From assembly GCF_036507355.1 (NCBI RefSeq), contig NZ_AP027877.1: a stretch of 64,000 nt of DNA. One strand, given 5' to 3'. Made by a program: the position numbers. The DNA is from Escherichia coli (GTDB taxonomy: Bacteria > Pseudomonadota > Gammaproteobacteria > Enterobacterales > Enterobacteriaceae). Shown piece by piece: positions 58,901 to 62,296 of this stretch (position 1 is its first letter; the number at the start of each line of letters is the position of its first letter).

Positions 58901-61900
58901 GCCTGGCAACACTTCAATAAGCCGCCCGGCACGCAGGGCTTCGCGCACGGCAATGCGCGGGATCTGAATAATCCCCAGACCGGCAAGACCGGCGGCGAGA
59001 TAGTTTTCGCTACTGTTTACCGTCAACATGCCGCCAGACTTAAACCACTGGACGCCATTAACGCTGGCAACCTCAAAACCTAACGGATGTACACCCAGGT
59101 GCGGTGTATAACGCACTATTGCGTGTGAAGTCAGATCATCGGGGCTTTGCGGATAACCAAAGCGCGTCAGATAGTGCGGACTGGCACAGTTGACCATGGT
59201 CAGTTTGCCGAGGGGACGGGCGATAACGCCATCTTCCGGTAACGCGCCAGTGCGTATCACGCAATCAAAACCATCATGAAGAATATCTACCGGACGGTCA
59301 TGGCTACTCAGTTCCAGCTCAATTCCCGGATGCTGATAGAGAAATTCCGACAGGTGCGGCAGTAACAGGCTTTTCGCGATTCCTGGCGGGATGTCGATGC
59401 GTAATTTACCGCTGATACTGGTGGCATCCTGCTGAAACAGACCGTCCAGTTCGTTGAGATTACTCAACACATCTTTTGCTCGTTGATAATAGGTCATGCC
59501 TTCTGGCGTGAGTTTGACCCGTCGCGTGGTGCGCTGGAGAAGCTGGGTGCCAAGTTGATGTTCCAGTGCCTGTATCTGGCGCGAAATACTTCCTTTTGGC
59601 AAAGCAAAGAAATCCGCCGCGCGGGAAAAACTTTCCAGCTCCGCGACTTTGATGAACAACTGCATTGCGTGAATTTTATCCATTTCTTTGACCGATTGTT
59701 GTTCACAGCGAAACAGTAACGCGCATATCGCATTGTTTATTGTTTTTTCTAACATCTAATGCCGGGTTTCACAATGTTGTCATAACGAATGTGGCGATTT
59801 CTCAGCAGGAAAAGGGCGGAATAGCTTTCTGAGAATGGTGAATCCCCTTAAACAGAGCGTATTTTTCAGCGATTCCCTTTAAAGTGAATAGAGGACGTAT
59901 TGGCTATTTGTGCTTATTTTTGTCTCATTGCCGTTTGTTATTTTGGCTTGTGGTCGCGGAATTTCATTTTTAATTGCATGCGTACTAACCATCAATATAA
60001 GGAAATCCTCAAAATTGTTTTAAATAGTGCCCTCGACATGTAATTTCAGGCGTTTAGCTGTAACTATTTATATCGGTAACTATTTTCTACGCGTCATCTC
60101 TGTAGAATGGCCACCGCCAAATGGCGAATTCTTATTTTTTCTCGCGGGTAATACCCTTCCACTACTTAAGTCTTTTTAACATATTCAGGTGGAGATTCAG
60201 TTATGCAAATAGTCATGTTTGACAGGCAGTCAATATTTATTCATGGAATGAAAATCAGTTTACAGCAGCGTATTCCAGGAGTGAGTATTCAGGGGGCCAG
60301 TCAGGCAGACGAGTTATGGCAAAAGCTGGAAAGTTACCCTGAAGCCTTAGTTATGCTCGATGGCGATCAGGATGGTGAGTTTTGCTACTGGCTGCTGCAA
60401 AAAACCGTGGTGCAATTTCCTGAGGTTAAGGTGTTAATTACGGCGACGGATTGCAATAAACGGTGGTTACAGGAAGTTATCCATTTTAATGTGCTGGCCA
60501 TTGTGCCTCGTGATTCAACCGTCGAGACATTTGCGTTGGCGGTAAATAGTGCGGCGATGGGGATGATGTTTCTGCCTGGAGACTGGCGGACGACGCCGGA
60601 AAAGGACATTAAAGATCTCAAATCGTTAAGCGCCCGCCAGCGGGAGATTTTAACCATGTTAGCGGCGGGCGAATCAAACAAGGAGATCGGCAGAGCGCTG
60701 AATATCAGTACCGGAACGGTAAAAGCGCATCTGGAATCCCTGTATCGCCGTCTGGAAGTGAAAAATCGCACCCAGGCGGCAATGATGTTAAATATCTCCT
60801 CCTGAAGTAATGCCGATCAGTTAAGGATCAGTTGACCGATCCAGTGGCTGTGTAAGAATCCGGAAACGCTCACTCGTTTCCGGATTTTTTTATGCACATT
60901 GGACAGGCTCTTGATCTGGTATCCCGTTACGATTCTCTGCGTAACCCACTGACTTCTCTGGGGGATTACCTCGACCCCGAACTCATCTCTCGTTGCCTTG
61001 CCGAATCAGGTACTGTAACGCTACGCAAGCGCCGTCTTCCCCTCGAAATGATGGTCTGGTGTATTGTTGGCATGGCGCTTGAGCGTAAAGAACCTCTTCA
61101 CCAGATTGTGAATCGCCTGGACATCATGCTGCCGGGCAATCGCCCCTTCGTTGCCCCCAGTGCTGTTATTCAGGCCCGCCAGCGCCTGGGAAGTGAGGCT
61201 GTCCGCCGCGTGTTCACGAAAACAGCGCAGCTCTGGCATAACGCCACGCCGCATCCGCACTGGTGCGGCCTGACCCTGCTGGCCATCGATGGTGTGTTCT
61301 GGCGCACACCGGATACACCAGAGAACGATGCAGCCTTCCCTCGCCAGACACATGCCGGGACCCCGGCGCTCTACCCGCAGGTCAAAATGGTCTGCCAGAT
61401 GGAACTGACCAGCCATCTGCTGACGGCTGCAGCCTTCGGCACGATGAAGAACAGCGAAAATGAGCTTGCTGAGCAACTTATAGAACAAACCGGCGATAAC
61501 ACTCTGACGTTAATGGATAAAGGTTATTACTCACTGGGATTGTTAAATGCCTGGAGCCTGGCGGGAGAACACCGCCACTGGATGATCCCTCTCAGAAAGG
61601 GAGCGCAATATGAAGAGATCAGAAAACTGGGTAAAGGCGATCATCTGGTGAAGCTGAAAACCAGCCCGCAGGCACGAAAAAAGTGGCCGGGACTGGGAAA
61701 TGAGGTGACAGCCCGCCTGCTGACCGTGACGCGCAAAGGAAAAGTCTGCCATCTGCTGACGTCGATGACGGACGCCATGCGCTTCCCCGGAGGAGAAATG
61801 GCGGATCTGTACAGTCATCGCTGGGAAATCGAACTGGGATACAGGGAGATAAAACAGACGATGCAACTGAGCAGGCTGACGCTGAGAAGTAAAAAGCCTG

Positions 61901-62296
61901 AGCTTGTGGAGCAAGAGCTGTGGGGTGTCTTACTGGCTTATAATCTGGTGAGATATCAGATGATTAAAATGGCGGAACATCTGAAAGGTTACTGGCCAAA
62001 TCAACTGAGCTTCTCAGAATCATGCGGAATGGTGATGAGAATGCTGATGATATTGCAGGGCGCTTCACCGGGACGTATACCGGAGCTGATGCGCGATCTT
62101 GCAAGTATGGGACAACTTGTGAAATTACCGACAAGAAGGGAAAGGGCCTTCCCGAGAGTGGTAAAGGAGAGGCCCTGGAAATACCCCACAGCCCCGAAAA
62201 AGAGCCAGTCAGTTGCTTAACTGACTGGCATTACTCCTCCTGAAGAGGATAATTTTACAGCCAGCAGGAAGTTAGCGGCTGGCTGTAAAAATATTA

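Follow-up and report, generated by a model that had tools for sequence, protein, structure and literature searches.

An intact IS4 copy at a base-precise, recurrent target between yhjB and treF in Escherichia coli

The spacer between the convergent genes yhjB and treF of Escherichia coli carries a complete copy of IS4 in the window analysed here (the whole 64-kb stretch of DNA), and this locus raises the question of whether the position of the element is incidental and whether its arrival affects the two genes beside it. As to the first, IS4 has come to lie at exactly this base repeatedly and in both orientations, and the position is not an incidental one, a point that was missed in the preliminary description of this DNA. 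Taken together, the evidence makes it very probable that a functional-looking IS4 transposed into a preferred target in the yhjB–treF spacer, with an insertion that is probably neutral. The element and its borders comprise the following features.

60790..60792, no strand: AAA, left target arm, separated from the duplication by 3 nt (half-site consensus AAA-N3-C)
60796..60807, no strand: left copy of the target-site duplication, 12 bp, CTCCTCCTGAAG (repeat search and script)
60808..62233, plus strand: complete IS4, 1426 bp (direct reading, repeat search and script)
60808..60825, plus strand: IRL, 18 bp, TAATGCCGATCAGTTAAG (16/18 match with IRR)
60832..60859, plus strand: candidate sigma-70-like promoter for the transposase, TTGACC, 16-nt spacer, TG-AAGAAT (consensus scan 9/12, extended -10)
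60854..60891, plus strand: hairpin with a 15-bp stem and a T7 run that reaches the transposase ATG (repeat search and RNA fold)
60892..62220, plus strand: IS4 transposase (InsG-like), 442 aa (ORF scan, Pfam, Y307-x2-R-x3-E-x6-K321)
62204..62229, minus strand: 11-bp perfect hairpin overlapping IRR, followed by TCTTTTT on the minus strand (repeat search, terminator scan, fold z = -4.0)
62216..62233, minus strand: IRR, 18 bp (repeat search and script)
62234..62245, no strand: right copy of the target-site duplication, 12 bp, CTCCTCCTGAAG (repeat search and script)
62253..62256, no strand: TTTT, right target arm, 7 nt from the duplication (target-site alignment)

The preliminary description had placed an IS4 with a 12-bp duplication at 60796–62245, and reading, repeat search and script reproduced these coordinates base for base, together with the length of 1426 bp, the 18-bp imperfect inverted repeats, which match at 16 of 18 positions, and the uninterrupted 442-aa transposase (ORF 60892–62220). 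In the reading of 60500–62500, the 3' end of yhjB runs ...AATATCTCCTCCTGA to 60805, followed by AG and then by TAATGCCGATCAGTTAAGG..., and the right end of the element runs ...GCTTAACTGACTGGCATTA at 62233, followed by CTCCTCCTGAAG and then by AGGATAATTTTACAGCC. The duplication is perfect over its 12 bp; two fixed positions would share 12 nt by chance with a probability of 6e-8, and a chance origin of the repeat was rejected on this ground. Within the element, 60892–62220 is the sole long ORF and contains no stop. Its product matches both Pfam domains far above their cut-offs (Nterm_IS4, PF13006, 114 bits, E 3e-33; DDE_Tnp_1, PF01609, 110 bits, E 1e-31) and carries the YREK family motif, Y-x2-R-x3-E-x6-K, at residues 307–321, while the ends of the element, TAATG..., fit the subgroup signature -AATR. 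The IS4 subgroup has been described as having a length of 1400–1650 bp, -AATR ends, the YREK motif, direct repeats of 10–13 bp and conserved target arms (De Palmenaer, Siguier and Mahillon 2008, PMC2266710), and the copy in the window agrees with it in size, ends, YREK motif, duplication length and target arms, with no difference; the duplications at the other IS4 sites collected here extend up to 14 bp, one above the published range. All features of membership that can be read from sequence are present, and the element is IS4 itself. It is the single IS4 copy in the 64-kb window (repeat search and script): the script located no second IS4 end elsewhere in the window, and the window holds no IS elements other than IS4, so that a typical IS-rich Shigella background seems unlikely.

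The IS4 of K-12 (insG, b4278; NC_000913.3 4502090–4503515) has the same length of 1426 bp, the same arrangement of terminal repeats around a single 442-aa ORF, and a duplication that is 12 bp long at both sites. The two copies differ at 14 of 1426 nt (99.0% identity), and their transposases differ by four amino acids (N157T, G304A, R326L and T387I). They also differ in location, with the K-12 copy in yjgZ/nanX and the copy in the window in yhjB/treF, each site being empty in the counterpart region of the other genome. The genes and the native spacer around the insertion are as follows.

60203..60805, plus strand: yhjB, LuxR/GerE-family regulator, 200 aa, intact (ORF, Pfam GerE; equal to K-12 YhjB)
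62249..62294, no strand: native yhjB/treF intergenic hairpin, 17-bp arms, AT-rich ends (repeat search, fold; equal to K-12)
62294..63943, minus strand: treF, cytoplasmic trehalase, 549 aa, intact (ORF, Pfam; equal to K-12 TreF)

The names yhjB and treF are taken from the RefSeq annotation of matching genes. The yhjB stop codon, TGA at 60803–60805, lies within the left copy of the duplication, as had been described, and the insertion point is 2 bp past this stop. The absence of an IS from this position in K-12, also claimed at the outset, holds: the 50-bp yhjB–treF spacer of K-12 is identical to the spacer in the window after removal of IS4 and of one duplication copy, that is, to the reconstructed empty site. 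Since the spacer and the YhjB and TreF proteins are each identical to their K-12 counterparts, no coding sequence was altered by the insertion. The treF hairpin that had been placed at 62263–62291 is real and slightly wider than stated, with arms at 62249–62265 and 62278–62294 and a fold z of -4.3 to -4.6, and it is kept intact, adjoining the treF stop codon.

In the preferred reading, IS4 would have moved into the yhjB–treF spacer by the usual DDE cut-and-paste route, and staggered cuts 12 bp apart, once filled in, would have given rise to the CTCCTCCTGAAG duplication. The landing place would have been set by a long, roughly symmetric target preference, consisting of an A-run, 3 nt, a core of 11–14 bp running from C..C to G..G, 3 nt and a T-run, a pattern to which many intrinsic terminators and similar palindromes 3' of genes conform. 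The yhjB stop region suits this pattern well, which on this reading explains why separate IS4 insertions in other E. coli strains share the exact nucleotide in either orientation.

After the insertion, transcripts from yhjB would stop at the left hairpin and T-run of IS4, approximately 85 nt past the stop codon. The left end (60796–60900) folds with -35 kcal/mol and z = -4.4. This hairpin was judged by folding; the automatic terminator scan did not flag it, as the stem absorbs part of the T-run. Its position suggests that it is terminator-like for read-through from yhjB and that it would sequester the start region of the transposase. The promoter-like site at 60832–60859 may serve as the transposase promoter, in which case transcription would begin within the left arm of the hairpin and spare the mRNA of IS4 itself; the number of promoter-like sites in the region equals the shuffle expectation. 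At the right end, no hit in the region ranks above the minus-strand hairpin (62229–62204) in the terminator scan, and this hairpin would be expected to stop transcripts arriving from the treF side. As yhjB and treF converge, there is no downstream gene that could be polarized. The possible polar or antisense effects on yhjB and treF that had been proposed for this insertion thus appear overstated: they are unlikely given the convergence of the genes and the tolerance of both orientations in nature, and a neutral insertion is more likely, because the proteins are unchanged, the native hairpin stays beside treF and the terminator-like hairpins at both ends of IS4 face inward.

The alternative that survives best is that the insertion nevertheless has a regulatory effect, either by changing the 3' end or the stability of yhjB mRNA or by producing antisense RNA across treF, with the transposase gene or a hybrid promoter at the right junction as its source. 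The native 3' UTR of yhjB has indeed been replaced, and a small hairpin with a T-run after the yhjB stop (TCCTCCTGAAGAGGA TAATTTT) has been parted from the gene by IS4, but the IS4 hairpin and T7 about 50–85 nt past the stop can stand in for the lost terminator. On the other side, the right junction creates a promoter-like hybrid, CTGGCA-17-GATAAT, at 62225–62253, which is directed towards treF and from which any transcript would begin within the left arm of the native hairpin; however, this site scores 9/12, two such sites were found where 2.1 are expected from shuffled sequence, and the native hairpin stands between IS4 and treF. That insertions of either orientation occur in many lineages points to tolerance more than to selection for a directional effect. 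We therefore consider a regulatory effect unlikely.

Whether the copy arrived recently is a second point. The preliminary description had called it recent and potentially active, and this finds support in its closest relatives. A place that covers at least 80% of the element is present in 2479 of 5426 E. coli genomes, and three further NCBI assemblies encode exactly the same transposase protein as the window, with IS4 copies that differ from it by 0–2 nt. The copy with 0 nt different lies at eno in CP057879.1, and copies with 1–2 nt different occupy at least five loci in CP057617.1; these near-identical copies at other loci indicate that the IS4 in the window belongs to a recently mobile variant. 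Its intact ends and ORF, together with the near-identical copies elsewhere, suggest that the copy itself may be active. A different account of the same element would be that it has long been fixed in this lineage and is now inert. Such a history could be hidden by the poor representation of the lineage, for which the best 25-kb match among the 5426 genomes is approximately 99.0% identical, and decayed copies do exist at yhjB/treF, the transposase being frameshifted in 14EC007 and MS8345 and the terminus of the left repeat being mutated in AF14. In the window, by contrast, the duplication is perfect, there is no damage to the ORF, to either terminal repeat or to the YREK motif, and identical DNA is found at a different locus in another genome, which makes long and inert residence improbable.

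The frequency of the insertion was surveyed in 5426 complete E. coli genomes with the reconstructed 800-bp empty site as the query. The yhjB/treF site is empty and contiguous in 5390 of these genomes. Exact matches to the TreF and YhjD proteins of the window were all to common E. coli alleles, for which the site is likewise empty. The left and right junctions in the orientation of the window are each present in 12 genomes. As the terminal repeats are nearly identical, a match that covers only the flank and 18 nt, as seen in several further genomes, is the signature of an inverted IS4, and a query with the inverted element identified 11 genomes of this kind, one of which was fetched and confirmed. 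IS4 is therefore present at yhjB/treF in 23 of the 5426 genomes (0.4%; 12 in the orientation of the window and 11 inverted), and the comparison of this intergenic region across genomes, as proposed in the preliminary description, establishes that the insertion is not universal in the species. RefSeq already annotates this insertion in further strains of E. coli.

Eight loci with IS4 in the same orientation, four in the opposite orientation and one empty locus were fetched. At all 12 occupied loci inspected, the element is inserted at the same nucleotide and is bordered by the same CTCCTCCTGAAG duplication, in either orientation. At least seven haplotype groups can be told apart in the 5.15-kb flanks of these loci, members of different groups being separated by up to 280 differences, and the IS4 copies comprise at least four variants. 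A single ancestral insertion was considered and rejected, as CFSAN061772 and LC-1302-2020 have flanks with 0 differences and yet hold IS4 in opposite orientations. CUVET21-H2 and MS8345 likewise have opposite orientations, with flanks that are 19 differences apart and IS4 variants that are 12 nt apart. Because both flank haplotypes and IS4 variants differ among the occupied loci, several independent events must have taken place. Combinations of orientation and IS4 variant give a count of at least 6, and the addition of flank lineage raises it to about 10–11, so that independent insertions of IS4 at yhjB/treF number at least 6 and probably about 10.

The insertion in the window is itself a separate event, since its IS4 differs by 11–15 nt from all other IS4 copies found at yhjB/treF and its 5.15-kb flanks differ at 94 or more positions from every occupied allele examined. 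Although E. coli recombines often and IS4 variant A is found in the unrelated flank backgrounds L002, L005, L010 and L012, import of an already occupied allele by homologous recombination from another strain, in place of transposition within the lineage, is very improbable in view of these same distances and of the location of the nearest IS4 relatives (0–2 nt) at other loci, which leaves no donor among the genomes sampled.

Transposition into a preferred target is supported by the other sites at which IS4 is found. A target pattern was derived from 14 other IS4 sites with clean 11–14-bp duplications, which were aligned at the duplication boundaries with the site in the window left out; these 14 sites consist of the copies with the transposase of the window and eight further E. 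coli insertions. Among the resulting 28 half-sites, A is present at positions -6 to -4 in 22–25 of 28, and C is present at +1 and +4 in 26 of 28, which gives the pattern AAA-N3-[C-W-S-C ... G-S-W-G]-N3-TTT. Many of the sites are textbook intrinsic terminators, for example those at adhE/tdk (aaacggCCCCTTCTGGGGccgttttttt) and eno (aaaaatgcCAGCCTCCGGGCTGgcatttttt), and the pattern is also borne by intragenic sites in sbcD, mdtH, etk, a sulfatase gene and a gntP-like gene. An IS4 consensus of the form AAA-N20-TTT is said to have been given by Mayaux et al. in 1984; this served as a lead only, and the pattern reported here is derived from the data.

When the pattern is applied as a weight matrix to the reconstructed window, the yhjB/treF site ranks 9th of 250,198 position-by-length candidates and fifth among distinct loci. 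Its flanks score 10.9 (left) and 11.3 (right), compared with a median of 10.6 for real sites and a 99th percentile of 4.9 for random sequence; the right arm fits the consensus less well, with TTTT at a distance of 7 nt from the duplication and not 3, and the local palindrome TCCTC-N5-GAGGA lies off-centre, its midpoint being 2.5 bp to the right of that of the duplication. The matrix also holds in other genera: among 17 IS4 flanks located by an exact match to the 40-nt left end of IS4 in Kosakonia oryziphila (16 contigs) and Photorhabdus khanii, 15 exceed the 95th percentile of random sequence (Mann–Whitney p = 2e-12).

Two sites in the window score highest of all, one at the glyS terminator (16233) and the other at the cspA terminator (16834), and no IS4 in the same orientation is present at either of them in the 5426 genomes. 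The matrix was accordingly rejected as a predictor of occupied hot spots, and the consensus accounts for the usability of the yhjB site and not for the frequency of its use. A feature beyond the consensus, which could be selection or an unmodelled, for example structural, property of the target, favours the yhjB site. Selection is the obvious candidate, and it may act in that an insertion behind glyQS or cspA is perhaps costly, while a convergent, non-essential spacer is safe. The empty-site control for glyS was confounded by polymorphism in the hokA region next to that site.

That IS4 has a natural hot spot, precise to the base, in the yhjB/treF spacer, used in about ten independent events, in both orientations and with the same 12-bp duplication, and used more often than two sites in the window that fit the consensus better, is a view that we advance tentatively as one that falls a little short of carrying conviction. 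If it is correct, IS4 either senses more than a linear consensus, such as a terminator-like or cruciform shape or the context of termination, or convergent-gene spacers are selectively safe harbours for the element. No paper that names both yhjB and IS4 was found in the library searched.

The behaviour of IS4 at this site can be compared with that of better known elements. The symmetric target consensus of IS10/Tn10 and IS50/Tn5 leads to hot spots that are used in both orientations, and RNA folding close to the left end of IS10 and IS50 prevents their expression from transcripts that read in from outside; by analogy, the hairpin of IS4 at 60854–60891 would act in the same way. IS10 and IS50 have 9-bp duplications and a short consensus, whereas the IS4 target extends over approximately 24–26 bp, with A and T runs outside a duplication of 11–14 bp. 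Targeting of extragenic palindromes is exemplified by IS1397 and ISKpn1 in REP/BIME (such elements are surveyed in PMC1525189). Like these two, IS4 favours palindromic intergenic sequence 3' of genes, which leads to mostly harmless insertions; unlike them, its targets are a terminator-like series of A-run, GC-core and T-run and not REP, and they are also found within genes.

Both the element and its behaviour, with long duplications, a strong target preference and both orientations at one site, were already known. As an annotation, the insertion matters little, being one more classical IS copy where it does no harm. The contribution of this analysis is modest: it records a site to which IS4 returns at the exact base, and it draws from the data an account of the target, which helps to forecast the landing sites of IS4 and its frequent position just 3' of genes. 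IS4 at yhjB/treF is homoplasic and therefore unsuitable as a clonal marker unless orientation, IS4 variant and flanks are checked. Finally, in the strains XH988 and GN02350 large inversions have already arisen through IS4 copies at yhjB/treF, and the insertion in the window is for this reason a potential substrate for rearrangement.

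In two of the genomes that carry IS4 between yhjB and treF, the two junctions of the element no longer lie together: the yhjB-side and treF-side junctions are separated by ~100 kb in XH988 (NZ_CP019355.1) and by ~545 kb in GN02350 (NZ_CP095518.1), and in both genomes they are found on opposite strands. Junctions that lie far apart on opposite strands imply large inversions, which would have arisen by recombination between the yhjB/treF IS4 and another IS4 copy. Some of the IS4 copies at the yhjB/treF site are in decay, as shown by the single-base deletions that put the transposase gene of 14EC007 and that of MS8345 out of frame and by the mutated left-repeat terminus of AF14, which reads TCATG rather than TAATG. 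A further variant is found at IS4 position 68 (window 60875), where the window copy has C and most E. coli copies have T. The T creates an in-frame TTG, and the PGAP annotation gives a 448-aa transposase with its start within the hairpin, whereas the C of the window variant leaves no ORF other than the 442-aa one that starts with the ATG at 60892.

The IS4 left end was also found in assemblies outside Escherichia. In Kosakonia oryziphila REICA_142 an exact 40-nt left end is present on at least 16 contigs, the majority of these ends lying no more than ~350 bp from the end of a sequence stretch; judged from these contigs, a large expansion of IS4 in this strain is indicated. Another occurrence is on a contig of 265 bp from Methylobacterium mesophilicum NBRC 15688 (NZ_BPQU01000128.1), where the IS4 flank, atagtttgttacaaacacCAGAACCAAGAT, is exactly the K-12 flank at the MG1655 yjgZ/nanX site, and this end most likely represents E. 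coli K-12 contamination of the assembly.

Within the window, the best matches to the IS4 target matrix are two terminators:

16233-16246, glyS terminator
16834-16847, cspA terminator

The flanks of IS4 insertions elsewhere align 27-38 nt into both terminator sequences, and no same-orientation IS4 was found at either terminator in the 5426 genomes.

The window also contains a pair of inverted repeats of 88 nt (36705-36792 and 55869-55956; 86% complementary), which probably belongs to the REP/BIME type of extragenic repeats and is also the probable source of the many scattered per-genome BLAST places in the search with the 25-kb window segment. An Rfam match overlaps this repeat:

36687-36729, ES036 sRNA

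Further Rfam matches (16386-16541, 16824-17251 and 34200-34451) belong to features that are usual in E. coli and have no relation to the IS4 finding, namely the sok antitoxin (hokA locus), a tRNA, naRNA4 and the cspA thermoregulator.

Separately, the window lacks ~11 kb of the cellulose locus, from bcsG through most of bcsZ, at the point where the ldrD/rdlD toxin-antitoxin locus meets what is left of bcsZ, its 3' end:

42227-42942, region with the junction, near 42760
42525-42590, rdlD, Rfam match
42943-43656, first ORF, matching BcsC residues 1-231 only
43644-46415, second ORF, overlapping the first

The junction is spanned by no match in the 5426 complete E. coli genomes, the matches listed starting at query position 341. 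bcsC appears to be split into these two ORFs within 42943-46415.
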